Source: Bdellovibrionales bacterium RIFOXYD12_FULL_39_22 (GTDB taxonomy: Bacteria; Bdellovibrionota; Bacteriovoracia; Bacteriovoracales; Bacteriovoracaceae). From it: a stretch of 64,000 nucleotides of DNA. The stretch covers positions 1 to 64,000 of the forward strand of contig MEQL01000027.1 of the NCBI GenBank assembly GCA_001770205.1. The letters run 5' to 3'. The notes under the pieces were generated by a model. The model was not told the origin of the DNA and did no database searches. It saw only the letters and a program-made list of their open reading frames with translations. This document shows, piece after piece, positions 1,775 to 22,105 of the stretch; position 1 is the stretch's first letter; every line of letters starts with the position of its first letter. A program made the position numbers and the translations under genes.

Positions 1775-2248
1775 CTAGTCACTTAAACGGATTTTTTTTA
1801 ATGTCATAGCGGGCAGTCCCGATTGTATTCCCAGTTTTTTACTTATTGTTATGAACTTGTTGAAATTAAGCGAATAGTCTTCGATGGCCGAAACATCTCC
1901 ACCTTTTAATTTAGTCACGCTTCCAAGGACAATCTCTATTCTTCTATAGATTGTGGTCAGTTCATCAATATTGTTGGACAGTTTTTTTTGATACTCGGCA
2001 CAGTTAACAACAAGCTGAAATTGTTTTACCACATTTTCTGTTGCATCAAAATAGTTATATACCGTCTCTGCAACAACCAAACGACTAACTTCCTCCAGCT
2101 TTTCCTCAAGGGTGTCTGTCTTGTTGGATAATTTTTCTATCTTTGATTCTAACGAAGAGGCGTTGCATGCAAGGAAATTTGGAACATCCAATGCAAATAA
2201 GTTAATCGATATTGATAATGCCACGAAAAAGGTGAAAGCTTTTAGCAT
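1775..2248 (-). CDS. Small secreted helical hypothetical protein
   Basis: AGGAG RBS; signal peptide MLKAFTFFVALSISINLFA. Confidence 0.7.
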   Translation of the reverse strand: MLKAFTFFVALSISINLFALDVPNFLACNASSLESKIEKLSNKTDTLEEKLEEVSRLVVAETVYNYFDATENVVKQFQLVVNCAEYQKKLSNNIDELTTIYRRIEIVLGSVTKLKGGDVSAIEDYSLNFNKFITISKKLGIQSGLPAMTLKKIRLSD

Positions 2249-2635
2249 AAAATTCTCCTGTTCATTAACCTAATGGTTTCTGTGCGCCGATCGCTCACAA
2301 ATTCCATGTGTTAATATTCTTGATCAAATCTTAGCGGAAAAATGAATTTTGATCAGATTTTTTTTGTTTTGGTTGTACAAAATACAGTGGTGTAAAAAAA
2401 ATAGTCATTTGCATAATTGCGTAATATGGTGAAAATACTAGAAAGTCGTTAATTTGCTACCGGCGAAGTTGCAAAACTCCGCCGAAATGGAATTCTAAAT
2501 TTAAAAATCACTTGGTGTCGTTTTGACCAAATAATAAAATCTTTTTTAGGATTTACCCATTTTGATATCGGGTAATTGTTACACTCTCTTTGTGTAAGCG
2601 CAATTAAATCAATACATAGCGTCAATTTATACTGT

Positions 2636-2651
2636 CGGCTCGATATTTGCT
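2636..2651 (+). promoter_or_regulatory. Putative sigma54 (-24/-12) promoter of the signalling operon
   Basis: CGGCTCGATATTTGCT: GG(2637-38)-N10-GC(2649-50) with TTGC, about 50 nt before the ATG; the operon encodes a sigma54 activator. Confidence 0.6.
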
Positions 2652-2699
2652 CAATGACATTCCACTGCAGCGTATGCGCTTATTAAAAAGGTGGTAATA

Positions 2700-4247
2700 A
2701 TGAAATTCTTTATCGGGATTATTGTTACTCTGATTATTGTGTTGGGAATAGTTATTTCAAAAAGTTCTCTGGCAAGCAAATTAATATCGCAAAAAAATCA
2801 ACAAGTGTACGTCAAGGCCATCTATTCAATGCCTGTATCCTATGATCCGATCAAAATGAATGATGGTGCCTCGCTAATTTTTTCTGAACTTGTTTACGAA
2901 GGGCTTCTTCGCTTCACCGAAGATTATGGGGTGCAAGCTGGCCTTGCTGAGTTATGGAGTGCAAGTGACGATGGAACAATTTTAACTTTCAAAATTAATC
3001 CCAAAGCAATATTCCATAATGGGGACGCTGTTACTGCCAATGACGTAAAGGTTTCGTTGACCAGAAATGTCAGTCAAGAGAGTGTTGTGTATAAATACTA
3101 TGACGTAATTAATGGTGCTAAAGATTATCATGCGGGGAAGGCGGTGGCGGTTGATGGATTGAAAGTTGTTGATAGCAATACCATCGAAATTCATCTTGAA
3201 AAAGCATTCCCACCGCTTTTATATGTTTTGGCAGGTGCTACCGCCAAAATTCTTCCAGCAAAATTAGTAGCAAAAAAAGATTTTTTCAAAAAACCAATTG
3301 GAACTGGCCCATTTGCGGTACAACGTATTTCGGAGAATAAAATTTATCTCACTCGTTTTGCTGTGTACCATTCGAAGTTACCACAGATATCAGGGATGGA
3401 GCTAGTTATGATGGATCAAAAGGACGCCATGGAAGAGGCTACGCTTGGAAAAATTCATGATCTTTCAAGTTGGCCGATGAATGGACAGGAGGCCGTTTTT
3501 AAATCAGGGAAGGATATTAGCTCGATAGTAGCAGATACGTGGGTGATTGGACTTAATGCGCGCCTAAAACCGTTTGATAATCTTGAAGTGCGAAAACTAT
3601 TTCAGCAAAGTTTTGATACTCAAAAATTCCGCGATACATTTTATCCTGACGCCAAGGTTGCGTTTGGTTATGTGCCGCCCTCATTTCCAGGCCATAGAAC
3701 TACAAAACTAGAAACAGTATCAAAAATAGAAAAACCTCCTCGTGAGTTGATCACCATCAATATCCCCGCAGAGTTAGATAAATCGTCGGAGATGGCGCAA
3801 TTTATTACCGATCAATTTAATGCTAAGGGGTGGAATGTTAAAGTTGTTATGACCAAATGGGATAAAATGATGGCCGAATATTCCGCCAAAACACTTCAGT
3901 CGTTTTTGGTTGCGATGATTGTTGATTATCCAGATCCAGAATTTTTGTTAAATAATTTTGAATCAACTAACCCAGATAATTTTAGTGGCCTAAATGATCC
4001 AGGTGTTGATTCATTGATTGTACAATCAAGAAGTACGCAAGATCGAATTAAAAGGCAAAGCATCCAGTTGGAGCTTGCCGAACGCATTGATGGATTGGCA
4101 TTATCAATTAATCTTTTTCATTCTCGCGCGCACTATTGGGTGAGTAAGTGCGTAGAGGGATTTAGGCCAAATCTGCTGGCGGTTGCGTATACTGATTATC
4201 GAAATGTATATTTTGACATGGACTGCTTGCGAAGAGGTGCTAAATGA
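2700..4247 (+). CDS. Orphan family-5 (OppA/DppA-like) solute-binding protein with N-terminal membrane anchor
   Basis: Motifs SYDP, VYEGLL, LAELW, FHNGDAVTANDV, PIGTGPF, DYPDP; no permease or ATPase genes nearby. Confidence 0.85.
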   Translation: MKFFIGIIVTLIIVLGIVISKSSLASKLISQKNQQVYVKAIYSMPVSYDPIKMNDGASLIFSELVYEGLLRFTEDYGVQAGLAELWSASDDGTILTFKINPKAIFHNGDAVTANDVKVSLTRNVSQESVVYKYYDVINGAKDYHAGKAVAVDGLKVVDSNTIEIHLEKAFPPLLYVLAGATAKILPAKLVAKKDFFKKPIGTGPFAVQRISENKIYLTRFAVYHSKLPQISGMELVMMDQKDAMEEATLGKIHDLSSWPMNGQEAVFKSGKDISSIVADTWVIGLNARLKPFDNLEVRKLFQQSFDTQKFRDTFYPDAKVAFGYVPPSFPGHRTTKLETVSKIEKPPRELITINIPAELDKSSEMAQFITDQFNAKGWNVKVVMTKWDKMMAEYSAKTLQSFLVAMIVDYPDPEFLLNNFESTNPDNFSGLNDPGVDSLIVQSRSTQDRIKRQSIQLELAERIDGLALSINLFHSRAHYWVSKCVEGFRPNLLAVAYTDYRNVYFDMDCLRRGAK

Positions 4248-5644
4248 GTAACGTTCATGAAAAAGTAGTACTCCCTTTCAAGAAATATATTCAAAAGCAG
4301 ATGGCATCTTATCAAATTGGAGTGCCGCTGATAATTGCCACATTGATTGCGCTTCTTGTTGGGACTACTGTTTTTGTTCAGTATGCAAACTCCAATAAAA
4401 CGTTCATTGAATCAATTGCTCCTCATGTTGCAACACTACTGGAAACGCAAGATCGGCCGGAGATTCAGCGGTTTTTACAAGCAGTATCGGCCAAACGTGG
4501 TGCTGCGATCGAAGTAATATCTAAAACAGATGAGATCATCGCCTCTTCTTTTGATTTTGGAAGAATTGGTAACCCGTTTGAGGGGAATTTAAAAGAGCTT
4601 CCTTTGCTTGATCTAAAAATTAATTAAGGAAGACTAATGAGTTTTACTGAGGTGAAACGAATTAATGGGCCGGAGGCGGCAACGGTATCTATGGGAATAT
4701 ATCTTGGACTATCTTCAATCATAATCCTCACTCTGGAAATTTCTCTTGGTACTTTTGTATTTTTGTTTTTTACCATCAATCTTCTTATCTCTAAAACGAT
4801 CAAGGAATCGACGGCCGGACTAACTTCTCTATCTGAGCTTGAAACAGCAATCAGAGAAGTTAAAACTGATTTTAATAAGAAGAACATCACTCAATCAAAT
4901 ATTTTAGAACTTGAAAATATCAGGGAAGCTTTCATTGAAACATTCACCGATCTTGAAGAGGCCAATAATAAACTGGCCAAGAGCAAAGCAAAAGAGATGG
5001 CAACAGCGGCATATAGAAATTTAATCCACGATCTTCAGGTGCCGGTTATGGCCATTGGCCACTATATGCAAATTTTAGATCATGAAATGGCCAGTATCGA
5101 AGATAGAAAGCAAGCGCAAGTGCGAATAGTTGATCTTGCCGAGCAGATAATCAAGCAGATTAAATCGGCCCGAACTAATTTGGCCTTGGAAGCTACTATA
5201 GAAAGTAGTGATTTATTGGTTTCAGTTGAAACTGCAACACAAAATGCCAAGGCGTCGCTTGCAGAGAAGGCCTTTGTGGAAGTTAAAACCATTCTGCCGA
5301 ATCAATCCATTAGACATCCACATGATTCGGTTTTGCTTGGACGAGCAATAAGCAATCTTGTTTCTAATGCGATTGATGCTGCCAAATCAAAAGTTTTTGT
5401 GGAAGTTGTGCCGGCGGACAAATTTATTAGTATCAAAATTAGCGACGATGGCCATGGGATGAGTATGGATGATGCCTCGCTATTTTTACAGGGCAGAGGC
5501 AAATCGACTAAAGCTGATAGAATGGGGATGGGCATATCGAGTGCAAATCACATAGTTCGTTCACACGGGGGAAAGATTGTTTATCAAAAATCACAAATGG
5601 GTGGAGCATGCTTTGAAATTAAATTACAAGGAGATCTAGCATGA
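4244..5644 (+). pseudogene. Membrane sensor histidine kinase interrupted by an in-frame TAA at 4625-4627 (ORFs 4244-4627 and 4637-5644)
   Basis: Both ORFs are in the same frame (AAT TAA GGA AGA CTA ATG). The first has TM1 and part of the periplasmic domain; the second has TM2, H-box (IHDLQVP), N-box (NLVSNA), DDGHG and GMG boxes. Confidence 0.75.
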
Positions 5645-7005
5645 AAAAGCCGACAGTACTACTTGCAGATGATGACAAGGATATTTTACAAACGATCAAA
5701 TTTTTCTTAAGCAATAGCTACGATGTGAAAATCGCCTCAAGCGTGGCAGAGGCCAAGGCGCAACTGCAAAAATATCAAATTGATGCGGCGGTGATTGATC
5801 TTAATTTTGAAGGGCAAGATGATGATGGCATTAATCTCATTGATTTCATCCAAGAGGAGATGCCATCGGTATCCATGATCGTGTTAAGCTCCGATCACAA
5901 TACCAAAAGAGTCGTCGAAGCAACCAGAAGGCCACTGGTTGATTTTATAACCAAAGATGAATATGCGCAGGCAGCAATTAGGCAAGCTTTATCGCAAGTG
6001 CTATCCAATAAGGAAAAGGTCAAATCCAACAATTCTTTTGAGTTTAAAACTCAGTCGCCGCTGGTAAAAAAGCTACTAGTAAAAGTTGATCAGGTGTTGG
6101 CCTCTAATAGTGGCGCACCAATTTTAATTCTTGGTGAATCAGGAACGGGAAAAGAATTTCTGGCAAAATATATTAGCTCCAAGGTAAATAAAAAATTGGT
6201 GGCGGCGAACATGGCCAGCATTCCAAAAGAAACTGCCGAAAGCGAACTCTTTGGCCACTGCAAAGGTGCCTTTACCGGCGCAGTCGCTGACAAAATCGGA
6301 CTACTTGAGCAGGCCCACAACGGAATTTTCTTTTTAGATGAGATTGGGGATTGTAGTCCAGCAATTCAGGCCAAGCTACTTCGTGCGATACAAGAAAAAG
6401 AGATTATGCCTGTCGGTGGAACCGTGCCAAGAAAAGTAGAGGTCAGATTTATTGCAGCTACTCATAGAGATTTAGCTCAAATGATAAGCGTGGATGAATT
6501 TAGACTTGATCTCCATCAGAGGTTAAATACGTTTACCTTTAAAATGCCACCTCTTCGTGAGCGTCCTGAAGATGTGGAGTATTATGCTCGAATATTTGTT
6601 AATGACTTTAAAGGCGGTGAACAATTTAGAATTGAAAAATCAGGCCTTGATATGTTAAAAAATCATAACTGGGAAGGAAATGTTAGAGAGCTGTGGAATG
6701 TAATTCAAAGAGTTGTTGTCTTTTCTAAAAGAAAATCTCTTGATCAGGAGTCTGCTCTGCAAGCAATCAGTTCAAAAGATTTAACAGAACCTGAAATTTT
6801 TGAAGAAAAAGAGTATGGTAAACAGCAGATCATTGATGCGCTTAAAAATGCTAATGGAAATCGGATGAAGGCAGCAGAAATTTTAAAAACACACATAACA
6901 ACTTTGCACAAAAAGATAAATAAGTTTGGTCTTCGAGATATAATTGGGCACAAAAATGCAGGCAGACCAGTTTGCAGTATAGATACGGAAACATTATGGC
7001 ATTAA
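5641..7005 (+). CDS. NtrC-family sigma54-dependent response regulator
   Basis: Receiver (LLADDD...IDL), [35 protein letters not shown] and a Fis-type HTH. Confidence 0.95.
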
Positions 7006-7802
7006 TAAAACTTGTAAAAAAAGCAGAACTCAAATCACCTAATCTGGTGTTTATCCCTGGTGGGCCAGGCCTTGGGCCTAATTCGTTTGATTTGCTTTCT
7101 GAAAAAATTGTCGGGGTTAATGTGTTTTATTTTTATCCGACAGGAACAATTTTAGAAGAGTCAGGTGGCCGGACACCATCGGTTTTAAGTTACGATGTGC
7201 AACTTGCAGATTTAGTAAATGAGATTAAAAAAATCAAAGCTCCTATCTTGTGTGGCCACTCTTTCGGTGGAATTATTGCCACGGACTTAGCAGTCAAATC
7301 TCCAGAATTAATCTCGGGCCTAATTTGTATTGCGTCACCATTTTCTAAAAATAGCTTTGATGAGGTTTCAAAAAATTTTATGGCAATACAAAATGAAGAG
7401 AGCGAAACGATCAACAATCTTTTTGAAAAAAATCCAACCAATGATTTGTATAAAAAATGGTTTGCTCACTACGCAGAACTCTATTTTTCGCATAAGAATA
7501 TAAAAAACGGTAAGAAACTACTGTTAAATGACTCTTCATGCGTTAAGGCCTATTTGGATGCAACGGAAGAGGCCTCGCAAAAAGAATCGCTACTTGCAGA
7601 AATAAAATCAAGCAGTGTCAGACGCATCTTTATTGCAGGAGAGGAGGATAGGCTGCTCCCTCCGAATGTTTTAGAAAAGGATGCCGCAAGCGGAGATTAC
7701 AAGTTTATTTCAATTGAATATGCTGGGCATTTTGCCCATTTTGATCAACCAGATATGGTCAGTGAGGTTATTATTAATTTCATTTTAACGGGGGGAAAGT
7801 AG
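6996..7802 (+). CDS. Alpha/beta hydrolase, proline-iminopeptidase (S33)-like
   Basis: PGGPG oxyanion motif, GHSFGG nucleophile, later D and AGHF; start ATG 6996. Confidence 0.8.
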   Translation: MALIKLVKKAELKSPNLVFIPGGPGLGPNSFDLLSEKIVGVNVFYFYPTGTILEESGGRTPSVLSYDVQLADLVNEIKKIKAPILCGHSFGGIIATDLAVKSPELISGLICIASPFSKNSFDEVSKNFMAIQNEESETINNLFEKNPTNDLYKKWFAHYAELYFSHKNIKNGKKLLLNDSSCVKAYLDATEEASQKESLLAEIKSSSVRRIFIAGEEDRLLPPNVLEKDAASGDYKFISIEYAGHFAHFDQPDMVSEVIINFILTGGK

Positions 7803-7803
7803 T

Positions 7804-8160
7804 GTGAAAAATCTATTACGCGTAATGGCCGTTTTGCTAGCAGTTGGGTCGATGGCCCAAGCAGTTTGTAATTTTAACAAATCACTTAGTGTAATAAATC
7901 CGGTACTAGTTGAAGATGAGGCAAATCTTTTAACTCAGCTAATTGAATTAAAAAAGCAAAGTGATCTGACAGGAATACCATTTTCAGATATCCAGACGGA
8001 AGCAGGTATGCCAGAGATCAAATCCAATGATGATTTTAAAGAACAGTTTTTACAGCACACACTTAAATATCTTCAGACGATTAAAGGTGGAGAGAACACT
8101 GTCCAGAAAGTTCTAAAACAGCAAGAGCTACAACCTAAGGGTTGTGGGCCTGGGATTTAA
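7804..8160 (+). CDS. Small secreted protein with C-terminal GCGPGI tail (possible signal precursor)
   Basis: GTG start after GGGGG RBS; signal peptide ending AQA; coupled to both neighbours. Confidence 0.75.
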   Translation: MKNLLRVMAVLLAVGSMAQAVCNFNKSLSVINPVLVEDEANLLTQLIELKKQSDLTGIPFSDIQTEAGMPEIKSNDDFKEQFLQHTLKYLQTIKGGENTVQKVLKQQELQPKGCGPGI

Positions 8161-8690
8161 TGAAGCAAGATATTGGAAAATATTCTGGCGCTCTTTTAAT
8201 GTTTGGGTTTGGTGTTTTGGCACTTTATCGTTGGCACCAAACTCAGCTTTTGTTTTTTTTACTGTTGGTGCTAAGAGATTTTGTCGCTGCATACTTTTTT
8301 CTAAAACGCAGGCCTGCGGAAATAAAATCTGGACGACTGCCTACGATTGCTTCTTACATCTCCTCGGCACTACCACTTTGCTATTTGGGTTCCGACAACG
8401 TACTACCGCTTTTTTTGCTGATCTCAACGATTATGGCCGTTATCGGTTTTCTTCTGGTCGCACTGGCCACTATTGAACTTGGAACATCGCTGGGAATTTC
8501 TCCTGCAAAACGTCAACTGGTTAAGAGTGGAGTTTATAAAATTATCGCTCATCCAATGTATGTAGGCTATGCTATTGCAGAATCAGGACTTACGCTAATC
8601 AATCCCATCAACGCCGGCATATTGATACTATCACTTCTGCTATATTGGGTAAGGGCCAAGCAAGAAAATAAGATTTTGGGCCCCTGCTAA
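8160..8690 (+). CDS. ICMT/PEMT-family membrane methyltransferase
   Basis: TAATG overlap; multiple TM helices; LVKSGVYKIIAHPMY and RAKQE motifs. Confidence 0.8.
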   Translation: MKQDIGKYSGALLMFGFGVLALYRWHQTQLLFFLLLVLRDFVAAYFFLKRRPAEIKSGRLPTIASYISSALPLCYLGSDNVLPLFLLISTIMAVIGFLLVALATIELGTSLGISPAKRQLVKSGVYKIIAHPMYVGYAIAESGLTLINPINAGILILSLLLYWVRAKQENKILGPC

Positions 8691-8932
8691 AGTTAAGTTG
8701 TATCTAATTTCAATTTAATATTCGTCTCCAATTCCATTTAATTGACGCTCGCTTTGTCATTTCGCTCTTTCACCCCTCCGCAAGCTCTGCCAAAGGTTTA
8801 CTTTGGCATTTACTTGCCCAAAGTGTCGGGGTGCGCTCCAATCCTTCGCTTGCTTTTTTTCCTCTCCGGGCCTCCGTTTTTGGGTGAAGAGGCCCTCAAT
8901 CAAGAGGAAAAAACAAAAATGGAGACTGCTTT

Positions 8933-9382: not shown

Positions 9383-9455
9383 AGCTTCGTCACCATTTTG
9401 AAAATTTTACAGGGATGTCCTCTGCTATCATCGGTTTATTCACGCAAATGACTCA

Positions 9456-9522
9456 TCAAGTTAATAGTAGCCACTACTATTATGAAATAGTAGCGCTACT
9501 ATTTCGGCTACTATTAACTTGA
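9456..9522. repeat. Nested inverted repeats built from the AATAGTAG(C) motif
   Basis: 17-bp arms 9456-9472/9506-9522; perfect 22-bp palindrome 9484-9505; 9-bp-arm palindrome 9462-9482. Confidence 0.9.
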
Positions 9523-9647
9523 AGTGTCATTTTTTGCAACTCCTTCTTTTTATTAAATTTCCAAAAATCAGATGAGCTGGCACAGCTTGTGGAATTACTG
9601 ACCTCAAGAAAGCAAATGAAAATGCTTCAAAATCTAAAGGGGGAAGT

Positions 9648-10118
9648 ATGAGAGCGATAGATGAATTTGGATTGACAAGAGTGAGAAAGGATCAAACGCC
9701 ATGGCTTGATCATAACGGAGTTCCATTTAACGATGATCTGTTAAAAGTTTTATCCAAGTATTGGAGTCATGAAACTTGGAGCGATTATTTGCAATGGTTG
9801 GAAACTCCGATGAGAGAGTCGCAAATTGGCCATCATGCCTTTGACTCGATCGCTGAACAAATGGAGGAGTCCGCGTTTATTACAGCGGCCATCCGTGAAG
9901 CAGATCAAGAGCTAAAAGCAGAGATTGCGGAATTGCTTAATCAGATCACGATCAAGCAGAAAACGGTTTTGCAAATGAGCTATTGGCACGGCCTTAGTGA
10001 AAGGGAAATTGCCAGCAAATTTGGCATCACAAGAATGAGTGTTCGAGATATTAAAAAAAGAGCGATTCTAAAAATATCAACACTATACAAGAAAAAACAC
10101 TGCCCAATTGCCCATTAG
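9648..10118 (+). CDS. Sigma-70 region-4 HTH domain protein
   Basis: C-terminal QKTVLQMSYWHGLSEREIASKFGITRMSV...KRAILKI. Confidence 0.75.
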   Translation: MRAIDEFGLTRVRKDQTPWLDHNGVPFNDDLLKVLSKYWSHETWSDYLQWLETPMRESQIGHHAFDSIAEQMEESAFITAAIREADQELKAEIAELLNQITIKQKTVLQMSYWHGLSEREIASKFGITRMSVRDIKKRAILKISTLYKKKHCPIAH

Positions 10119-10156
10119 TGAGAGGACAAAAAATTTTAACACAAACGGAGGACGAT

Positions 10157-10324
10157 ATGGAAACGAATAAATTTAGAACAATTTTAGCTTGGATTAAATC
10201 ATTTTTGACACAACTAGAGGGAACGCAGGATTCAGAAATGGCGTGGAGACGATGGGAGTATCTTGAATACAAAAAGTACGATGGTGGATTAGCAAAGGGG
10301 TTTGAGGATGGACGATTTTTCTAA
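10157..10324 (+). CDS. Small hypothetical protein
   Basis: GGAGG RBS before ATG 10157; lies within the operon. Confidence 0.5.
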   Translation: METNKFRTILAWIKSFLTQLEGTQDSEMAWRRWEYLEYKKYDGGLAKGFEDGRFF

Positions 10325-10565
10325 GGTAAAAAAGAAGAAGATTGAAAATCAGATTGTGAGTTTAAACCAGTTTTTACCAACGCTCAGCGATGAAGCCCAG
10401 ACGGCATTACATATGCGCTACTGGGAATTGATGACTATCGAAGAGATTGCTAGGGCCATGGGAAAAACTTGGGATGTGACAGATCGATTGATTGAGAGTG
10501 CGCTAAAGAGGCTAAGAGATTTATTAGCTGATGGCGTGGATGATTCAAAGGCCATTGCGGCCTAA
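10308..10565 (+). CDS. Stand-alone sigma-70 region-4 HTH protein
   Basis: LSDEAQTALHMRYWELMTIEEIARAMG...ALKRLR. Confidence 0.75.
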   Translation: MDDFSKVKKKKIENQIVSLNQFLPTLSDEAQTALHMRYWELMTIEEIARAMGKTWDVTDRLIESALKRLRDLLADGVDDSKAIAA

Positions 10566-10570
10566 AGGGT

Positions 10571-11032
10571 ATGGAGAACAATTTTATGCAAGAATTAAAA
10601 ACAGTATTGGACACGATTATGAGTAATGACGAGCAAGCAAATTTCTATCGTTTTGTCGTCTATCTAGGAGAGGAAAAAGGTTTGGGGAAGATTGAGAAAA
10701 CTAAAACCATCGGAATGGCGTACCTAAAAGATGGCCATGCCACATATACAGTTAGGCTATGGACACTTCTCAATGAACGCTTCTATTTGATTCCTCATAA
10801 ATCCGATGTAGGCCGATATTACATCATGACTAGAGAGGCAAATAAGTTTTCAGAAAGTAGAAAAAAATATTTTTGGAACATAGTTGGAATGGCCAGAGTT
10901 GATGCAGCAAATGGTTATATGCGCTTGGATTTTGATTTGATTGAAAAAACTATTTACATGAGCATTTATCCAGAAATGAAAGAGAGTTCGTCAACGCTAG
11001 CACACCCAAACACTTTTATGGATGCAGCTTAA
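10571..11032 (+). CDS. Hypothetical protein with weak internal duplication (IGMAY / VGMAR)
   Basis: ORF in the operon directly before the pilin. Confidence 0.65.
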   Translation: MENNFMQELKTVLDTIMSNDEQANFYRFVVYLGEEKGLGKIEKTKTIGMAYLKDGHATYTVRLWTLLNERFYLIPHKSDVGRYYIMTREANKFSESRKKYFWNIVGMARVDAANGYMRLDFDLIEKTIYMSIYPEMKESSSTLAHPNTFMDAA

Positions 11033-11054
11033 ACTAAAACATAAGGAAATTATT

Positions 11055-11357
11055 ATGACATTACAAAATTCTAGAAAAACACAGATGACAATTTTATTAC
11101 TAATCGTCGGTATCGTTGCACTAATGGCACCTGATCTTGCTTTTGCTGGATTGGAGTCAAGTTTGGTTGGACTAAAAACTAAACTGACGGGAGTAATTCT
11201 CCCCGTGCTGGCGGTAATCGGAATGGCAATTGCGGCGATTTCTTTTTTTACTGGAAATCCAAACGCCAAGTCGCACATGGTGTATGCCATCTTGGGTTGC
11301 ATTTTTGGTTTCGGAGCACAGGCGATTGTTGATTTTATATCACAAACGGTTCGCTAA
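11055..11357 (+). CDS. virB2: VirB2/TrbC-family pilin
   Basis: About 100 aa; signal peptide ending PDLAFA then two hydrophobic helices; first gene of the T4SS block. Confidence 0.75.
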   Translation: MTLQNSRKTQMTILLLIVGIVALMAPDLAFAGLESSLVGLKTKLTGVILPVLAVIGMAIAAISFFTGNPNAKSHMVYAILGCIFGFGAQAIVDFISQTVR

Positions 11358-11372
11358 ACATTTGGAGGATGT

Positions 11373-11699
11373 ATGGAAGAAGAATTACTCACAAGTTCGG
11401 TGCCACGAGCGTTAGAGATGAAGACGAAAATATTGGGTTTTGAACTTCCAGACCTCCTTTTGATATTTATGAACATGGCGATAACTAATCTTGTTTTTGG
11501 TGGAACGAGTTTACGTTATCCGCTGGTATGGGGAACGACGCTAGCAATAGCGTTGTTCCTCTACTTTATCAAAAGGGGAAAACCAGACAACTATCTTCAA
11601 CATCTGGGGGAGTTTTATACTAAACCGGCGATGCGATCGGCCGGAGAAGCAGATCTTTTATATCGAAAATTTAAACGCAAGGAAATAGACAATGAATAA
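11373..11699 (+). CDS. VirB3-like inner membrane protein
   Basis: Two TM segments; located between the pilin and VirB4. Confidence 0.6.
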   Translation: MEEELLTSSVPRALEMKTKILGFELPDLLLIFMNMAITNLVFGGTSLRYPLVWGTTLAIALFLYFIKRGKPDNYLQHLGEFYTKPAMRSAGEADLLYRKFKRKEIDNE

Positions 11700-14199
11700 T
11701 TTTATAAACACATCACTGGCAAGTGAGCTGCCCTATTGGGAATTTTTTGATGGGCCTCGTCCACATGCGATTTTATTTGATGGATCAATTATTGCCGGAG
11801 TGCAGGCATCATTGGTTGATATTGAGTGCTGGGATAGTGCGGCCATCAATCATCTAACCGAAGGCGTACGTTCGTCACTAAATTCCATTAGTGAAGGACT
11901 GTCAGTACAATTTTACCTACGAGTTGGATCGGACGCGTCTTCGTTTGTTGAAAAGCATAAAAATGGATTTAATCCATCAGCTCATCCCCTGATAAAAAAG
12001 ATTGCACAAAAAAGAGAGTCTGGGTTGCAGACAAGCTTGGAGTCAGGCGAATTTTATAAACCAGAACTTTTTATTTTTTTGAAAACGCCAATGCTGCAAG
12101 GACAGAAGTTTGGATTATTTAAACGGCCAGAAAAATTTGCTGAAGCTTCCAGGGAAAACTATGAAGAAACGGTGGAAATGCTTTTTCAAAATCTTGATAC
12201 GCTGATTTCATCGTTAGGAGGCCTTGGCATTAAGAGTAGGCCACTTTCTAAAAGTGAGTTGGTTGAGATTATATATCGTTTTTTAAATCCAAAACGATCA
12301 CTGAGTGAATCGTGTCCAAAAGTCCAAACAAGTAATGAGGTTGAGCTTGAATCATCGCTAATCCAAGAAGTACCTTGGATGGCCCAGCAATCTCCACGAG
12401 AGCAGTTAGTATTTGGGGATTTGATTTTAGAGTTTTCACATTTTGTGCTGGATTCGTATTTGCACAAGGTGATTACGCTTAAAACTCTACCAGAAATAAC
12501 TTTTGCCGGGCAGCTTGCAAATTTTTTAAGGCTTCCGTTTCACTATGATCTGCTTTTGTCTGTAGATATTCCGGAGCAGGCATCTGAGATGGCCAAGCTT
12601 CAGCAAAAAAGAAAGATGGCCCATTCTTTAGCAGCAACATCAGGTGGGAGGGCATCTGACCTTGAAAGTGAAACAAAGTTATCTTCTACTGAGGAGCTTA
12701 TTCGGGAGTTGCTTAGTAGTGGCCAGAGAATCTATGCGGCACAGATGAGTATTGTTTTAAGAGCACCTGTGGGCACTGATGGAATGCGACTTTTGTCTCG
12801 GCAAGCTAAAGAGGTGTTATCGCGCCTTAGAGCATTGCAAGGAGCAGAAGGCCTAGAAGAGAGTGTCGGTGCGTGGAAAGTGATTAGGGATTGCCTGCCG
12901 CTGGCACCACTTAATCTTGAGCGCGCTCGTCGGATGAAGACTAATAATCTTGCCGATTTTCTTCCTCTCTATGGGCCGCGCATGGGAGATGACGATCCAG
13001 TGGTGATTTTTAAAAATCGTCTTGGTGGTCTGGTGGGATACAACCCATTTGATCCTAGACTTCCCAATTATAATACGCTGGTAACGGGATCTTCTGGGGC
13101 CGGAAAATCGTTTTTGAATAATTGCATTTTATTACAAGAGATGGCCAGATCGCTTCGAGTATTTGTTATTGACATTGGAGGATCGTATAAAAAAATTACT
13201 CAGGCACTGGATGGGCAATATCTAGAGATAAATCTTTCGGATCAGTATCGACTCAATCCGTTTGATATTGCAGATATTGAAGAAGGGCCAACAAATCAGA
13301 AGCTAAAGTCACTACTGGCGGCAATTGAAAGTATGGTTACTGATGAGGATAAACCCAAACTGGCAAAACTTGATCGCGTATTACTCGAAAAAGAGATCAT
13401 TGAACTTTATAAAAAGAAGGCCAAGGAAAATAAAGTTCCGACACTTTCTGATTTGGTAGCGGCTCTGGAAAAATCCAAAGAGCAAACCATGCAGATTTTG
13501 GCCAAGCTTTTATACACCTGGACTGGAGATCGGCCCTATGGCCGTTTGCTGGATGGTTATGGTGGGCTTCGTGCAGATAGTACTATTTGTACTTTTGATT
13601 TGAAGGGACTTTCTAGTTATCCAGATTTGCAAAGTGTGATGATTATTATTTTAACCGATTTTATCTTGGGGCAAGTAGAAAATGATCGCTCGTGTAAAAA
13701 ACGGATAATCATGGATGAGGCGTGGGCACTTTTACAAAACCCGGCCTCCGCTGGATTTATGGAGTATTGCGCTCGGACTTTGCGCAAAACTGGTTCTGGT
13801 ATTACTTTTATAACTCAAGGAGTTGAAGAGATTGCAGCAAGCTCCATTGGGCCTGCAATTTTAAATAACACTGCGACTAAATTTATTCTTTTGCAAAGAG
13901 GTGATCCAAAGATTTTAAAAGATACTCTTCGACTAAATTCGCAGGAGATTTCTTTGATTGGCTCACTTGAACAGCGCAAAGGTAAATTTAGCGAGGGCTT
14001 TTTGATGGAAGGAGATGAAAAACAAGTAGTGCAAATAAGGCCAGGCCCTTTTGAGTATTGGTTATCAACTTCTGATGCTGAAGATAATAAATTTTTGGCG
14101 CAAAGACAAAACGATGGACTGAGCTTAATTGAGGCAATTGAAGAGGCAGTTGTAAAACATCCAAACGGCGTTGGAGCAAAAAAAGCGGAGGCAGCATGA
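11692..14199 (+). CDS. virB4: VirB4/TraC-type conjugative ATPase
   Basis: 835 aa; GSSGAGKS, IDIGGSY, LNPFD, MDEAW, RKTG..FITQ. Confidence 0.92.
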   Translation: MNNFINTSLASELPYWEFFDGPRPHAILFDGSIIAGVQASLVDIECWDSAAINHLTEGVRSSLNSISEGLSVQFYLRVGSDASSFVEKHKNGFNPSAHPLIKKIAQKRESGLQTSLESGEFYKPELFIFLKTPMLQGQKFGLFKRPEKFAEASRENYEETVEMLFQNLDTLISSLGGLGIKSRPLSKSELVEIIYRFLNPKRSLSESCPKVQTSNEVELESSLIQEVPWMAQQSPREQLVFGDLILEFSHFVLDSYLHKVITLKTLPEITFAGQLANFLRLPFHYDLLLSVDIPEQASEMAKLQQKRKMAHSLAATSGGRASDLESETKLSSTEELIRELLSSGQRIYAAQMSIVLRAPVGTDGMRLLSRQAKEVLSRLRALQGAEGLEESVGAWKVIRDCLPLAPLNLERARRMKTNNLADFLPLYGPRMGDDDPVVIFKNRLGGLVGYNPFDPRLPNYNTLVTGSSGAGKSFLNNCILLQEMARSLRVFVIDIGGSYKKITQALDGQYLEINLSDQYRLNPFDIADIEEGPTNQKLKSLLAAIESMVTDEDKPKLAKLDRVLLEKEIIELYKKKAKENKVPTLSDLVAALEKSKEQTMQILAKLLYTWTGDRPYGRLLDGYGGLRADSTICTFDLKGLSSYPDLQSVMIIILTDFILGQVENDRSCKKRIIMDEAWALLQNPASAGFMEYCARTLRKTGSGITFITQGVEEIAASSIGPAILNNTATKFILLQRGDPKILKDTLRLNSQEISLIGSLEQRKGKFSEGFLMEGDEKQVVQIRPGPFEYWLSTSDAEDNKFLAQRQNDGLSLIEAIEEAVVKHPNGVGAKKAEAA

Positions 14200-14885
14200 G
14201 AAAATTAAAAAGATTGTTGTTGAGCGGACTACTTACAATAATAATATCTAGTTCCGCGTCAGCGGACATGTTTGGCGGAGACATCGTTGTGCTTACCCAG
14301 CTTCTGTCAAATGCCCTGCAACAGCTTGTACAGCTTCGCGAAATTGTCGGTAACGGGCAAGATACTTTGGGAATGATGAGAGATATTAATCAGGGAATTA
14401 GAGATGGCCTTGATCTGATTCGCATTATTAACCCGAAGTTTAATCCAGGCCTTTACAGTAATTTGGATACTGCTGATCGAGTATTAGGTGTCATTAATGA
14501 GCTTTATGGAAAAGTTCCTCAGACGGCCGAGTTTAGGCTGCAACAAGCACAAGATCAATCGGTGGCAGAGAGTATTTCGATGAATGGGAATTTGTTTGAG
14601 TATGCCGATCAAGTTGATTTGGAATCTAAGCGAATTATGGATCATGCCAAGGTGGTGAGTCCCCAAGGAGCGGAGAAGCTAAATGCACAATCGCTCGCTG
14701 TGCTAATAGGAGTTACTACCCAGTTGCTTAGAACTAATTCGATGATGTTAAAGATGATGGGAGAAAATATGGCACTGTCCAATCGGAAGGAAAAATTGCA
14801 GTCAGCGCAATTTAAAAACCAATACGATGGGATGTCCAGTGCTCTTGGAAAATTGCCTCGCAAAAACAGTCTGCCGTCACTTTAG
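14196..14885 (+). CDS. VirB5/TrbJ-like secreted protein
   Basis: Signal peptide, Q/L-rich helical protein, follows VirB4. Confidence 0.55.
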   Translation: MRKLKRLLLSGLLTIIISSSASADMFGGDIVVLTQLLSNALQQLVQLREIVGNGQDTLGMMRDINQGIRDGLDLIRIINPKFNPGLYSNLDTADRVLGVINELYGKVPQTAEFRLQQAQDQSVAESISMNGNLFEYADQVDLESKRIMDHAKVVSPQGAEKLNAQSLAVLIGVTTQLLRTNSMMLKMMGENMALSNRKEKLQSAQFKNQYDGMSSALGKLPRKNSLPSL

Positions 14886-14909
14886 AGGTGGCAAGATAGG
14901 AGGTGAATA

Positions 14910-15776
14910 ATGCCATCATTTGAATTATTAGGAAGTTTGATGCGCGATTTGCACCGAGAGTTTGTGCGAATCTATTACTTGATGCTGCCAGTTTTCTTTT
15001 TGCTCTCCGTTGCGGTTACATGGTTTAGGCATCCACAAGGTAGTCCGGAATTTGTGAGTATAATAAAAAAGGCGGTAGTATCTACTTTTTTATTAGTGGC
15101 CTTTCCTGAAATTAGTCAGGCGATCGTTTCTATCTGTGATGGGATAGCAGATAAAATTGATTCGATGAATAGCATTGATACCATAATTAAAATGGCCGGA
15201 CAAAAAACGCAGGGCTATTCGTTTTCACCGACCAGTATTTTGTTGCAGTTTAACGATCTGATAATCGCTACACTTGCCTTTTTAAGTTACCTCGTCCTCT
15301 ATGTGGCACGTTATCTGACGGTGGCGATGTATCACTTTTTTTGGCTTTTTTTTATGGCCACCGCTCCGCTCCTTTTACTTTTTAATCTGTTTCATGGAAC
15401 GGAGCAGATCACTGGCAATCTATTTAAAGGGATGATTGAAGTTGCTAGTTGGAAAATTGTCTGGGGTGTGCTCGGCGCGATGCTAACTTCACTATCTTTT
15501 GGTGATGCGTATCGTGCCGAAGGATCATATGTCACTTTGATGGTGATGAATTTTATGATCGCAATTTCCATGCTGATGACCCCGATGATTGTAAGAAGCA
15601 TCGTCGGATCAGGGTTTCATGCAATGTCCTCGACAATAGGAGCAAGTACAGTGGCGGCAATGGCCGCAGCACCTGCAAAAGCGTTGATAATGTCAACGAA
15701 AACGAGATCGGCGATTAATTTAGGGCAAAATTTTATGAGGCAAAAATTGATGACACCAAAGAGTAAAAAAGAATGA
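14910..15776 (+). CDS. VirB6/TrbL-like polytopic membrane protein
   Basis: About six TM segments, small-residue-rich tail, synteny. Confidence 0.65.
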   Translation: MPSFELLGSLMRDLHREFVRIYYLMLPVFFLLSVAVTWFRHPQGSPEFVSIIKKAVVSTFLLVAFPEISQAIVSICDGIADKIDSMNSIDTIIKMAGQKTQGYSFSPTSILLQFNDLIIATLAFLSYLVLYVARYLTVAMYHFFWLFFMATAPLLLLFNLFHGTEQITGNLFKGMIEVASWKIVWGVLGAMLTSLSFGDAYRAEGSYVTLMVMNFMIAISMLMTPMIVRSIVGSGFHAMSSTIGASTVAAMAAAPAKALIMSTKTRSAINLGQNFMRQKLMTPKSKKE

Positions 15777-16399
15777 AAACGATTAATAAACAAAAATTTT
15801 ACAAAGGAATTAGTATGGATCAAAAAATTATTTTGAAAGCGGCCAATTGGCCTAAAGTTGTCGGAGATATGACTCACTCTAACCAATTACTAAAAACTTT
15901 TTCGCTTTGCTCACTGGCAATTGCAATCATGAGCTTATTATTTGCGTTTATTCTAAACAATCGGCCCGCTTTGGTGTTGGCATTTAGCACAGATGGAAAA
16001 GTATTCGAAGAGACAAAACTTCCTTCTGCTGAATTACAGATACGTGAAGCACTAAATGCGTACATCCGCTATCGCTATAACTGGACTCCGCAGAATATCA
16101 AAGACAACTTATCGGTAGCAATGAATTTCATCCTACCAAGAAGTAGCAAGGCGTTTGATGGAGCGATGAGTGAGGTAATGAAGTTTGCCCTAGAAAAAGA
16201 GGTGGTACAAAGGGCATATCCCAATCAGATGTCTATTGATCTTAAAAATAGCACAGCGATTGTTACGGGTGATCGGGTTAGTTCAATTCAGGGCCTTCGT
16301 GCTGCGGGAGAGCTAAAAGTATTACTGCAATTTGAAAATGGGCCAAGATCAACGCAAAACCCATGGGGAATTTATGTGGTGAAAGAAAAGGAGGAATAG
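15773..16399 (+). CDS. VirB8/TrbF-like protein
   Basis: Single TM; C-terminal NPWGIYV motif typical of VirB8. Confidence 0.7.
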   Translation: MKTINKQKFYKGISMDQKIILKAANWPKVVGDMTHSNQLLKTFSLCSLAIAIMSLLFAFILNNRPALVLAFSTDGKVFEETKLPSAELQIREALNAYIRYRYNWTPQNIKDNLSVAMNFILPRSSKAFDGAMSEVMKFALEKEVVQRAYPNQMSIDLKNSTAIVTGDRVSSIQGLRAAGELKVLLQFENGPRSTQNPWGIYVVKEKEE

Positions 16400-16403
16400 G
16401 TTT

Positions 16404-17123
16404 ATGAAATGTATTTTGATTTGTTCGCTCATACTATTTGGATCAATTGCGAATTCATTTGAGAATCGTGTTCGTTATGTTGAAGTGCAACCTGACCAAG
16501 TTGTTACCGTAAAAACAGCAATTGGAATTGCTACCATTGTTCAGGTGCCAGACTCCCCCAACAGCGTTGTTGTCGGCGATCAGAGCGCTTTTAAGGTGGA
16601 GTATCTTGATAAGGCGATTACCATTAAGCCCCTTGTGAGTGGGGCCAAGAGTAATCTCTATATTTATACTGAATGGAAACGGTACAATGTGCAACTGATT
16701 ACTGGTGCCGAAGTCAGGGCGGATTATGTGGTTTATCTGAAACATCCGAAAAAAAAAGAAGATGGATCAGTTATCGCTTGGAGAAGTATTAGTAAAAAAC
16801 TAACCAACGATGACATTTCGTTGGAGGTAACAAGAGTTGGAAATACTTCTGGAAAATTTTTGTTTCTTGAGTTTCAGATTATCTCTAAACAAAATAGGCC
16901 AATCAAACCAGAGTGGATTTGGTTGACACAAGAAGGAGTTACAAAGCCGATTAACAAATTGATTTTTTCGTCACTGACAATGAAAAAAGGTGAATTTGTT
17001 AAAGGTGTGATTCAGCTTGCCAAAGAGGATATTGATGTAAATGCATACTTGCGCTTTGAGTTGAGAAGAAAAACGATTTCTTATTTAACCATTGCCAAGG
17101 CGTCTGCATGGAAAACAAAATAA
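16404..17123 (+). CDS. VirB9/TrbG-like protein
   Basis: Signal peptide; VGD...ITIKP...SNLYIYT..KRY pattern. Confidence 0.7.
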   Translation: MKCILICSLILFGSIANSFENRVRYVEVQPDQVVTVKTAIGIATIVQVPDSPNSVVVGDQSAFKVEYLDKAITIKPLVSGAKSNLYIYTEWKRYNVQLITGAEVRADYVVYLKHPKKKEDGSVIAWRSISKKLTNDDISLEVTRVGNTSGKFLFLEFQIISKQNRPIKPEWIWLTQEGVTKPINKLIFSSLTMKKGEFVKGVIQLAKEDIDVNAYLRFELRRKTISYLTIAKASAWKTK

Positions 17124-18067
17124 AAAATGCCTTCTTAAAAGCACCCAAACCGTTTTCGTCAAGGCAAGAGATCAATTGGAAAACGATAATCACATTGTGC
17201 GGTGTCACTCTCTTTCTATTTGTTGTTGTGATTTTAGTTTTACCAGAAAAACCCAAAGAAGAATTAGACTTTCACGAGACAGCGACTATTGATGAGACTC
17301 CAAACAATGCGGAACGAATAACGGCAACTGAAGATACTTTGGCTCAGTTGCAAGCGACAAGTGGTTTTTCAAGATCAGTTGCCGATCCACTAACTGCTTA
17401 TGGAAATGGTGGAACAGCTCAAGGTGGTGGCGGAGGTGGTTCAAATCGTGATCGCAACACTTCGATGATTTTGGCCAGAGAGGGGGCAACCTCGAAAGGT
17501 AAACTTCCACTTGGGTCAAGGGTTGTATTTAAAATTGCCGAGGCCATGACAGTAACAAAGCAAGCGATGCCGGTAGTTGGCGAGGTGGTAAAAGATGTGA
17601 TCTATGAAAATAGTGTGGCCATTCCTGAGGGGGCAAAACTATATGGGGAGATTAGTTTTGATGATTCATCTGAGCGGGCCAACATTAATTTTCAGTCGAT
17701 AATTTTTCCAAACGGCAGAGAGCGAGCTATTTCGGCGATCGGCATAGATGCAGACGGGAGGATTGGTATTAATGGAGAAGTTCACTCGGAAATTCTAAAA
17801 AATTTGATGGGCCATACCATTACGCGATTTGTCGGAGCTTACGCCGAAGGAGCAATGACACGCGGCCAGATGGGGGCCAGTAGTGGAGGACATGAGAATG
17901 GTTTGAAAAATGCAGTTGCAGAAACTGCCAAAGATTATGCTGAAGGATTTGGTGAGGAGATGAAAAAAGAACAAAAATGGATTGAGCTTCCGGCCGGAGT
18001 TGTGGCCGAAGCAGTTTTAAATCAGGGCCTTATTTTCAAAGACCCAGGGGCGGTTAATGGATTCTAA
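17108..18067 (+). CDS. virB10: VirB10/TrbI-like protein
   Basis: TM, Gly-rich linker, IPEGAKLYG, DADGRIGING. Confidence 0.75.
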   Translation: MENKIKNAFLKAPKPFSSRQEINWKTIITLCGVTLFLFVVVILVLPEKPKEELDFHETATIDETPNNAERITATEDTLAQLQATSGFSRSVADPLTAYGNGGTAQGGGGGGSNRDRNTSMILAREGATSKGKLPLGSRVVFKIAEAMTVTKQAMPVVGEVVKDVIYENSVAIPEGAKLYGEISFDDSSERANINFQSIIFPNGRERAISAIGIDADGRIGINGEVHSEILKNLMGHTITRFVGAYAEGAMTRGQMGASSGGHENGLKNAVAETAKDYAEGFGEEMKKEQKWIELPAGVVAEAVLNQGLIFKDPGAVNGF

Positions 18068-19688: not shown

Positions 19689-20110
19689 CAAACAGTTTAA
19701 TAATATTAGTTGTACTTGTTGCCGCAATTTTTGGAGGTTGCGCAACAAGTACAAGAAGCACCGCCCTTGGCGGTGCTATCGGAGCAGGCACGGGCGCAGT
19801 CCTAGGTGGAATCGCTGATCCTGGAAAACATGGTGAGTACCGTACTCGAAATGTAATCGTTGGTACGGCGCTTGGTGGAATGGCCGGAATGATGGCAGGC
19901 TCCATCATCCACGAAAACACAGAAGAAAAAATGCAAGAGGCATACGCCGCAGGGAAACGATCAGCTCCGATGTCAGGAGCTATGCCAGCTTTGCAAAAAC
20001 CAAAAGTAGAAGCTCGCTGGGTTGAAAGTCAAATTGTAGGCAATCGTTATATCGAAAGCCATTTTGAGTATGTGATTATTGAACCAACTAAATGGGAGGA
20101 GAGCGAATGA
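19685..20110 (+). CDS. Glycine-zipper lipoprotein (transfer-associated)
   Basis: Lipobox FGGC; GAIGAGTGAVLGG zipper. Confidence 0.7.
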   Translation: MTNSLIILVVLVAAIFGGCATSTRSTALGGAIGAGTGAVLGGIADPGKHGEYRTRNVIVGTALGGMAGMMAGSIIHENTEEKMQEAYAAGKRSAPMSGAMPALQKPKVEARWVESQIVGNRYIESHFEYVIIEPTKWEESE

Positions 20111-21873: not shown

Positions 21874-22105
21874 ATTTTTTTCCCAAACATGGAGACTTCT
21901 TGTGGCAAAAAACAAATTACTTTCTGGAGCAAAAAAAGCTCCGAAGAAGCTTAAAGTTAGATTGATTCCGTACTATGAAAATATGATTGAGTTCCAACAA
22001 CGTAAAGAAGAAGCGCAAGAGATCATCGCTAAAATGATCATTCTTGCCACTACTCGTGGCCGTCCTCGCAAAGACGAAGAGGAGGATTTTGAACATGCAG
22101 CATAA
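21863..22105 (+). CDS. Small basic protein with AT-hook-like RGRPRK; candidate recombination directionality factor
   Basis: Overlaps the HTH gene and the integrase start; function is inferred from position. Confidence 0.55.
   Translation: MNREFFSQTWRLLVAKNKLLSGAKKAPKKLKVRLIPYYENMIEFQQRKEEAQEIIAKMIILATTRGRPRKDEEEDFEHAA

Follow-up and report, generated by a model that had tools for sequence, protein, structure and literature searches.

The window analysed here, a stretch of 64,000 nt, is contig MEQL01000027.1, positions 1 to 64,000, of Bdellovibrionales bacterium RIFOXYD12_FULL_39_22 (GCA_001770205.1), and our subject is a module of six tightly packed + strand genes, delimited by open reading frame (ORF) listing and translation, which encode a solute-binding protein (SBP), a sensor kinase, a sigma54 activator, a hydrolase, a small protein and a methyltransferase. 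The SBP gene occupies 2691/2700-4247, where GTG 2691 gives the longest ORF and ATG 2700 is the likely start according to an alignment of upstream regions. It is followed on the same strand by the kinase (4244-5644), the sigma54-type response regulator (5641-7005), the alpha/beta hydrolase (6972/6996-7802), a small exported protein of 118 aa (7804-8160) and an ICMT/PEMT-family membrane methyltransferase (8142/8160-8690). A preliminary description of this DNA had treated the six genes as one tightly coupled unit. The order of the genes and all of the named junctions are indeed present, i.e., ATGA overlaps at 4244 and 5641, an overlap at 6996, a 1-nt gap before 7804 and, at 8160, a TAATG in which the start of the methyltransferase gene overlaps the stop of the small gene; however, the kinase, although it lies in a single frame, is split into two pieces by an in-frame TAA at 4625-4627.

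Downstream of the module lie the leader genes of a transfer operon (9648-11032, + strand), comprising two proteins that consist of sigma70 region 4 only (9648-10118 and 10302-10565, by Pfam/NCBIfam), a 68-aa ORF and a 153-aa protein with a conserved position before VirB2. The type IV secretion system (T4SS) operon itself (11022-19688, + strand) encodes a VirB2 pilin, a VirB4/TraC-like ATPase, VirB9, VirB10 and a TraD-type coupling protein, as assigned by Pfam and NCBIfam. The module had been placed about 1 kb upstream of this operon; it is upstream, but the T4SS genes begin at 11022, 2.3 kb after the module, with leader genes from 8933 and 9648. A large serine recombinase (22044-23867, + strand; Pfam, NCBIfam) marks the right end of the element, and ordinary metabolic genes lie beyond it (3' of 23867). 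The contig begins at window position 1, 2.6 kb before the module, and the left end of the element is outside the view. The hallmarks of an integrative and conjugative element (ICE), namely a T4SS with VirB4, a coupling protein and a recombinase at one end, are present, and because of this layout we read the element as integrative and probably conjugative. The labels of related contigs, nearly all of which are Bacteriovoracaceae, Bdellovibrionales, Halobacteriovorax or Oligoflexia, indicate a predatory host of the Bacteriovoracaceae type for this integrative, probably conjugative, element. They overrule Legionella, to which the G+C content of 36-42% had at first pointed.

The module recurs well beyond this contig. 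Relatives of the SBP (E <= 1e-20) occur in 20 of 151 sampled genomes of the family, in 18 of 69 genera, a patchy spread which fits a mobile element, and in 16 of the 19 regions fetched from the sampled genomes the SBP, kinase, activator, hydrolase and methyltransferase genes stand in the same order. A larger pool of 67 loci was assembled from one search for relatives (62 loci), the window and four others, and all five BLAST-detectable genes were found in order in 46 of them. Within the available flanks, 20 of these 46 complete modules have at least two T4SS genes (11 downstream on the same strand, 9 upstream and divergent), and 6 further ones have one weak T4SS match; five more modules, truncated by contig ends, adjoin a divergent T4SS. 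The synteny check proposed with the preliminary description thus came out in its favour, in that many loci carry the genes together as a unit, with linkage to operons encoding VirB4 and a type IV coupling protein.

Variable cargo, for the most part defence systems and metal-resistance genes, occupies the stretch between module and T4SS. In seven loci (L037, L040, L042, L044, L045, L060 and L077) the cargo flanking the module includes type I restriction-modification, BREX, AbiE, a CBASS-like pair (DncV-like plus patatin) and a heavy-metal P-type ATPase with CsoR; in L040 and L042, a second, unrelated ICMT-family gene adjoins the metal ATPase. At the left of the window's own module, at the contig start, there are a BspA-type leucine-rich-repeat protein (91-1017, - strand) and two ORFs without assignment, homologues of which were not found beside the module in other loci.

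The window module belongs to clade 1, its SBP being 63-67% identical to those of L016 and L035-L038, whereas its T4SS is of the type found elsewhere in divergent orientation beside clade-3 modules (VirB4 ~65%). This combination indicates that modules and T4SS have been reshuffled against each other while remaining linked. A second and more distant copy of the module is present in the same genome (contig C53, locus L028, 4257-10001; SBP 47% identical), with an intact kinase of 449 aa and a 50-aa small protein ending in HEPGI; Abi_C, SIR2-like and methyltransferase genes flank this copy, and there is no T4SS on the 18-kb contig. The module is also present in a cultured strain, named Halobacteriovorax sp. 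HLS by NCBI. Pieces or copies of it lie on contigs labelled Opitutaceae, Chlamydiae, Elusimicrobia and Saprospiraceae (L094, L087, L090 and L071, respectively), the first being a complete Opitutaceae-labelled chromosome with only the first 123 SBP residues (L094, 10001-10360); these off-phylum copies could reflect either cross-phylum transfer or mis-binning.

A variant form of the module, observed at L055, L091 and L092, keeps the SBP, kinase, hydrolase and methyltransferase and has neither a sigma54 activator nor a sigma54 promoter. Its small protein ends in KPGV in L055 and L091, and L092 is cut off before the small gene. The L055 variant sits among glycosyltransferase, O-antigen ligase and capsule genes, not beside a T4SS. 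Because L055 retains the binder, kinase, hydrolase, small protein and methyltransferase without activator or T4SS, this variant argues that the five form one functional unit with an exchangeable output.

On the output side, the activator has the make-up of an NtrC-type protein, with a receiver (Response_reg, 52.6 bits), an AAA+ domain (Sigma54_activat, 181.8 bits vs. a cut-off of 20.2) carrying GAFTGA in its translation, and a C-terminal Fis-type helix-turn-helix (HTH_8, 30 bits; all Pfam), in agreement with its earlier designation as a sigma54 activator. An rpoN gene is present in the genome (contig C35, 220 bits). The preliminary description had also placed a sigma54-type promoter before the unit, and the -24/-12 sequence CGGCTCGATATTTGCT at 2636-2651 (+ strand) is the best intergenic match in the element. 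When the 190 nt before the SBP start were scanned with a fixed GG-N10-GC model scored out of 12, a site scoring at least 9 was found about 55 nt upstream of the SBP gene in 37 of the 56 testable loci, vs. 1.4 expected by chance, and a site scoring at least 10 in 29 of the 56, vs. 0.35 expected. The position of the promoter is thus conserved in relatives far beyond chance, and the site is missing in the three variants that have no activator. Seven loci (L040, L042, L044, L060, L081, L083 and L051) have a second sigma54-like site on the opposite strand, ~270-390 nt upstream of the module promoter and facing the cargo genes, a possible divergent promoter that would rely on the palindromes described below.

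An alignment of the window's upstream region with those of L016, L035-L038, L059 and L062 revealed conserved blocks before the modules of close relatives, i.e., ATAGTAGCGCTACTAT palindromes ~200 nt before the promoter, a GTAATTNTTAC block and the -24/-12 element. In the window, the place of the ATAGTAGCGCTACTAT palindromes is taken by a degenerate remnant (ATAGTCA ... ATAATTGCGTAATAT, 2400-2427, + strand). A search for inverted repeats in window positions 2240-2700 gave nothing convincing, and the conserved blocks are visible only by alignment with relatives. Between the palindromes and the promoter, the GGTAATTGTTACA block (2571-2583, + strand) is conserved in 8 of 8 aligned upstream regions and could be a second protein-binding or bending site.

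The corresponding motif is intact before the T4SS leader of the window, where four ATAGTAGC half-sites, including the perfect palindrome TAGTAGCGCTACTA, lie at 9464-9514. The 64 kb contain 8 copies of ATAGTAGC vs. 0.93 expected, and 4 of these are within the 51 bases of this cluster; in the closest relatives, this motif stands before the module promoter. It is followed by a -24-like TGGCAC box, CTGGCACAGCTTGTGGAAT (9576-9594, + strand), which lies 71 nt before the next gene and is conserved in L016. In L016, the nearest relative with a T4SS in view, TAGTAGC/GCTACTA is found at both promoters, each time followed by a box CTGGCACAGCT(C/T)GTG. A scan of the window from the module to VirB2 for canonical sigma54 sites gave no more than one weak candidate of score 8, at 9411. 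A terminator-like hairpin (8788-8817, + strand) overlaps TGGCATTTACTTGC, which at 8804 resembles the T4SS-side element TGGCAC-N4-TTGCT of relatives; we regard it as a lead only, since elements of the TGGCATTTACTTGC type have 2 matches in the window vs. 0.38 expected, and 10 of 100 shuffles also reach 2, which is not significant alone.

Other clades show the same arrangement with other palindromes. In clade 2, ATATCGC..GCGATAT or CTATCGC..GCGATAG stands before both promoters in 6 of 6 loci, at -150 to -205 of the module promoter and at -80 to -127 of a sigma54 site, TGGCAC-N6-(C/A)GCA, which is itself 953-1015 nt upstream of VirB2. In clade 3, all 9 loci examined carry TCTCTCA..TGAGAGA at -160 to -193 relative to the module promoter, L077 having only one exact half-site. 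The element on the T4SS strand in this clade, TGGCAC-N4-TTGCT, is conserved in 11 of 15 divergent loci, and the palindrome precedes it in 10 of the 11 that were aligned, there being none in L054 and a partly masked stretch in L095. According to the alignment of the helix-turn-helix region, the recognition helix of the activator is constant within palindrome groups and different between them: HKTTLHR in the TAGTAGC group of clade 1 (HKVTLHR in L035), HISTLHR and HFSTLHR in the ATATCGC and CTATCGC groups of clade 2, and SEATLYR in the TCTCTCA group of clade 3, with HITTLHK in the window.

The palindrome follows the clade of the module, not the type of the T4SS, which makes the activator encoded in the module the foremost candidate for its binding protein. 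Most likely, judging from these alignments, the activator binds the clade-specific palindromes and drives both promoters, and the comparison of loci supports control of transfer through sigma54 well. The preliminary description had the module autoinducing through sigma54 and controlling ICE transfer. Palindromes specific to each clade and common to both promoters are in line with this, but those before the window's own module promoter are degenerate, while its T4SS leader retains four intact half-sites. As a side observation, the two sigma70-region-4 proteins sit between the palindrome cluster and the T4SS genes, with homologues at the corresponding position in L086 and L089; these proteins could constitute a second regulatory tier.

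On the input side, the binder is a family-5 SBP (SBP_bac_5, 162.6 bits vs. a Pfam cut-off of 32.4) that begins with a hydrophobic signal or anchor. Among NCBIfam equivalogs, none scored above its cut-off. The closest solved chains are HbpA, DppA, DppE and OppA, in keeping with the OppA-like label given to it earlier. Neither the window's element nor the annotated related loci contain a permease or ATPase gene for it, as had also been stated, though Opp/Dpp-type permeases are encoded elsewhere in the genome. The SBP segment DYPDP aligns with GDYADP of an OppA, in which the Asp holds the amino group of the bound peptide, and this would make a short free peptide a likelier ligand than the tail of a protein. 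A complex prediction for the mature SBP and the mature small protein, both supplied as alignments, returned a score of 0.00 and a mark of 0.32, which speaks neither for nor against their binding.

Since the nearest solved relatives of the SBP bind dipeptides, oligopeptides, murein peptide, heme/glutathione and nickel, the binder might simply sense peptides from outside, such as those of prey or of cell-wall breakdown, with the two-component part controlling the T4SS and the small protein and the enzymes serving, e.g., envelope changes for mating or exclusion. The hosts, to judge from the contig labels, are predators that live on prey peptides, which suits such a role. Against it, the SBP, kinase, hydrolase, small protein and methyltransferase stay together in the variants without activator and T4SS, the small gene is translationally coupled to the methyltransferase gene through the TAATG at 8160, and the conserved tail of the small protein, described below, is left without explanation. 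We consider this alternative unlikely.

The hydrolase matches Abhydrolase_6/1 and Hydrolase_4 in Pfam, has no signal peptide and is predicted to be cytoplasmic, and its GGPG oxyanion motif and Ser-Asp-His triad (S89, D218 and H245 in A5 numbering) are invariant. The earlier S33-like label is not borne out by family scores: TIGR01250 gives 30 bits vs. a cut-off of 167.65, and only general alpha/beta-hydrolase families pass. Its structure model (pLDDT 94.1) has generic esterases, BioH, MenH, KAI2 and the proline iminopeptidase F1 as nearest folds, in a search that did not discriminate between them and pointed to no specific function. The methyltransferase matches both PEMT (PF04191, 34.2 bits vs. 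25) and ICMT (PF04140, 30.9 bits vs. 24) in Pfam and has a conserved C-terminal motif, which upholds its description as an ICMT-family enzyme. Invariant residues are R118, G124, Y126, H131, P132, M133, Y134, R165 and E169, and the conserved R, G-x-Y, HPMY, R and E make up the cofactor motif. The NCBIfam model for isoprenylcysteine methyltransferase (isopcys_mtase) gives 29.5 bits vs. a cut-off of 160, and Pfam scans found neither a prenyltransferase nor a CaaX protease in the locus. Our guess, from the positive-inside rule applied by eye to the sequence, is that the catalytic loop faces the cytoplasm. With a cytoplasmic hydrolase and a methyltransferase that faces the cytoplasm, both enzymes could therefore meet the free C-terminus of the small protein before its export.

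Between these two enzymes, the small ORF is present in 43 of the 43 loci with both enzymes, plus the window and five further loci. The window's protein of 118 aa has a predicted signal peptide, a helical middle and a disordered tail ending in ...KGCGPGI, and no Pfam or NCBIfam family; the signal peptide agrees with the earlier description of a small secreted protein. Lengths fall into short forms of 37-68 aa and long forms of about 83-122 aa, and only the signal peptide, of the type MKxxLKxxAxxLAIGAxxQT in all of the small proteins, and the tail are constant across them. In a hand tally of 49 C-termini, Pro was at position -3 in 49 of 49, and the endings were PGI (35), PGV (6), PTI (3), PTV (2), PGP (2) and PNV (1), i.e., mostly x-x-P-G-I. 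The last five residues form 26 different pentapeptides among the 49, those of the window and of the second module in this genome being CGPGI and HEPGI. The tail is not a CaaX box, and the Cys near the end is not conserved.

The family extends into sequence databases with the same ending. In a word-indexed search, 26 of 28 database members outside the loci end in PGI or PTI, the other two being truncated proteins. An exhaustive profile search found 41 proteins at E <= 0.001 among 1.84 billion representatives; Pro was at -3 in 32 of the 35 of these that were fetched, the remaining three being truncated, and the 32 include weak matches that were aligned over the N-terminal half only, so that the C-terminus lay outside the match. 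Database members are annotated as hypothetical or unannotated, and none has a Pfam domain. The differences between close pairs are mostly at third codon positions (e.g. 13, 4 and 48), which is the pattern of a coding gene. A structure model of a long form shows a signal helix, three helices and a disordered tail, and a Protein Atlas look-up returned features scoring 0.77 at best, with no fold match of any meaning. A signal peptide followed by a variable spacer and a constant C-terminal tail is a Phr-like layout, and the small protein fits the role of a candidate peptide precursor.

The long forms, in which the tail follows a conserved helical domain of ~70 residues, invite a different interpretation, in which the small protein would be a periplasmic inhibitor or co-sensor of the binder or kinase, its tail plugging the binder, and the module would report the state of the envelope or of secretion rather than cell density. 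A periplasmic protein of 98 aa also cannot cross the outer membrane unaided. The short forms, however, leave only ~17-30 hydrophilic, low-complexity residues after the signal peptide, with the tail alone conserved, and this is a better fit to a released peptide, so we hold an inhibitor or co-sensor to be quite improbable. The enzymes suggest yet another possibility, i.e., that hydrolase and methyltransferase make or destroy a lipid-like methyl ester sensed by the binder, with the small protein unrelated. Signalling by 3-OH fatty acid methyl ester in Ralstonia is the model for this; ICMT/PEMT enzymes methylate carboxyl or lipid head groups in membranes, and the hydrolase has an esterase-like fold, resembling among others that of the methyl esterase BioH. 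The binder, however, belongs to family 5, a family of peptide binders, and the invariable position of the small ORF between the two enzymes speaks against its being unrelated, which makes a lipid-like signal a very remote prospect.

The kinase, finally, is where the window departs from its relatives. The N-terminal piece (4244-4627, + strand) contains the first membrane helix and most of a ~100-aa periplasmic domain, within which the TAA lies, just ahead of the second membrane helix. The C-terminal piece (4637-5644, + strand) contains this second helix, the H-box (LIHDLQVPV) and HATPase_c (62.9 bits vs. a cut-off of 26.4), with no receiver domain found by Pfam. The letters over 4200-5000 are the same in contigs of 4 of 4 public runs, which are maybe the source sample and not independent. 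Across the split point, 49 of 50 loci keep the homologous kinase frame open, the exception, L088, having an insertion; 18 of 18 loci encode the homologue in one uninterrupted ORF of 443-473 aa, and in the alignment the intact kinases carry N, E, T or S where the window has its stop. A AAGGAAGA sequence and an ATG lie 9 nt past the stop, and a restart of translation could give a truncated kinase without its sensor domain. Because of the stop codon and of the degenerate palindromes before the module promoter, the input side in this genome is probably dead or rewired. Insertions of about 1.8-3 kb interrupt module genes elsewhere, i.e., the activator in L022/L067, the hydrolase in L078 and the kinase in L088. 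These insertions, together with the nonsense codon in the window, suggest recurrent inactivation of the module across elements.

Taken together, we propose that the element carries its own regulatory module, a sigma54-dependent operon whose activator acts on palindromes, which takes a peptide as its input and switches the T4SS, and we rate this overall model as somewhat favoured. Comparison across loci supports a sigma54 promoter that drives the module operon and, most likely, an activator that binds element-specific palindromes, which lie both at the module promoter, as feedback, and before the T4SS operon. With palindromes before both, the module probably decides when the transfer machine is made. 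The small gene would yield a Sec-exported precursor, of which the part constant throughout the family is the C-terminal tail x-x-P-G-I, and the methyltransferase and hydrolase would work on this tail before export. The former may methyl-esterify the C-terminal carboxyl group, which is a guess, and the latter would act as the corresponding esterase or as a peptidase that trims the tail. Release of a short tail peptide, into the periplasm or to the exterior, would follow; the orphan DppA/OppA-like binder would capture this peptide and dock on the small periplasmic domain of the kinase, and the kinase would set the phosphorylation state of the activator. Signalling by a self-made peptide is plausible from the gene set and the conserved tail. 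The full pheromone reading, in which the ICMT-family enzyme caps the last four or five residues (x-x-P-G-I) of a Phr-like precursor as a methyl ester, the released peptide is sensed outside the cytoplasm by the DppA-like binder and the kinase, and the activator feeds back on the module and switches on conjugation, we put forward only tentatively and regard as rather doubtful; positions -4 and -5 of the tail would, in that case, give many pherotypes.

Several observations weigh against this model. The loci come from related metagenome-assembled genomes and are not independent of each other. For 20 of the 46 complete modules, the available flanks, which reach no further than 5.8 kb downstream and 10 kb upstream, contain no T4SS genes; five genomes without a T4SS near the module were checked, and VirB4-like genes were present in 5 of 5, located ~17 kb downstream on the module's own contig in one and ~21 kb away, apparently on the same contig, in a second. 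Three variants do without the activator, and one of them sits among polysaccharide genes rather than beside a T4SS. With regard to conjugation, no relaxase was identified confidently in Pfam/NCBIfam scans of the element, only a weak match to a MobC/replication-relaxation-like protein (20092-20880, + strand; NCBIfam, 35.5 bits vs. a cut-off of 200). With regard to the T4SS-side promoters, the box of the window and of L016 lacks the canonical -12 GC, and the clade-3 element is one base shorter than canonical sigma54 spacing. The clades are lineages too, so that the match between palindrome and recognition helix is a correlation only. The kinase gene of the window itself is broken. On the signal side, P-G-I is nearly identical in all clades, so specificity would rest on -4 and -5, and binding of the tail by the SBP, action of the enzymes on the small protein and departure of the product from the cell are proposals drawn from sequence.

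If the model is true, it would describe a Gram-negative counterpart of peptide-gated conjugation, built from an orphan binder, a kinase, a sigma54 activator, a precursor and two tailoring enzymes. Peptide-signal control of conjugation is textbook knowledge for Gram-positive plasmids and ICEs; the known Gram-negative cases of signal-controlled conjugation use acyl-homoserine lactones or opines. Few substrates of bacterial ICMT-family enzymes are known, and the model would supply a candidate peptide substrate for them. Even without the peptide part, the common clade-specific palindromes provide a testable model of how the T4SS is switched on, and the occurrence of the module in the cultured Halobacteriovorax sp. 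HLS makes the model open to bench testing. The preliminary description did not recognise the architecture from described Gram-negative systems, and likewise no description of the module, or of sigma54 control of an ICE, was found in a full-text library that lacks most subscription journals.

Among enzymes, the comparison concerns Ste14/ICMT, which acts on yeast a-factor and CaaX proteins. The module's methyltransferase shares with it the enzyme superfamily, the cofactor motif and, as proposed, a C-terminal carboxyl target on a signalling peptide, whereas the module tail x-x-P-G-I has no CaaX and no conserved Cys, and the locus has no prenyltransferase or CaaX protease. Another comparison is AgeMTPT of the aeruginosamide cyanobactin pathway, whose methyltransferase part is probably ICMT-like. 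AgeMTPT methyl-esterifies the C-terminus of a ribosomal peptide (PMC10496146); unlike the module, it belongs to a cyanobacterial natural-product pathway with prenylation and without a sensing part. A further paper that combines an ICMT with a ribosomally made and modified peptide concerns a polyketide cluster and not this module (PMC11264947).

Among signalling systems, we note likenesses to and differences from three. First, Rap-Phr of ICEBs1 and the Phr peptides of Bacillus have a small Sec-exported precursor with a C-terminal functional part, an OppA-family binder and transfer of a mobile element as the output. In contrast, the module has an orphan binder and a kinase that would sense outside the cytoplasm, a sigma54 output, two extra enzymes and a Gram-negative host, and no Rap/RRNPP receptor of the tetratricopeptide-repeat type was found by Pfam/NCBIfam in the module or its flanks. 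Second, PrgZ/PrgX of pCF10 likewise combines an element-encoded OppA-family binder, which the SBP profile matches at E 2.6e-32 (PrgZ, 4faj), with a peptide that gates conjugation. PrgZ, however, passes the pheromone to the host Opp permease for import, whereas the module's binder precedes a kinase with a periplasmic domain, and, unlike in pCF10, the element itself encodes the candidate peptide. Third, LuxP-LuxQ-LuxU-LuxO of Vibrio also runs from a periplasmic binder through a membrane kinase to a sigma54 activator. There, LuxP is a binder of a different family, LuxQ, a hybrid kinase, acts via LuxU, and the signal is not a peptide, whereas the module has a family-5 binder, a kinase without a receiver domain and an activator that reaches 224 bits on the LuxO model vs. 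a cut-off of 800. The module, as modelled here, would be signal-gated conjugation from a new set of parts, without the defining features of Rap-Phr, PrgZ/PrgX or LuxPQ-LuxO; by analogy, it resembles Rap-Phr and PrgZ/PrgX in its presumed purpose and precursor layout, and LuxPQ-LuxO in its proposed flow of signal.

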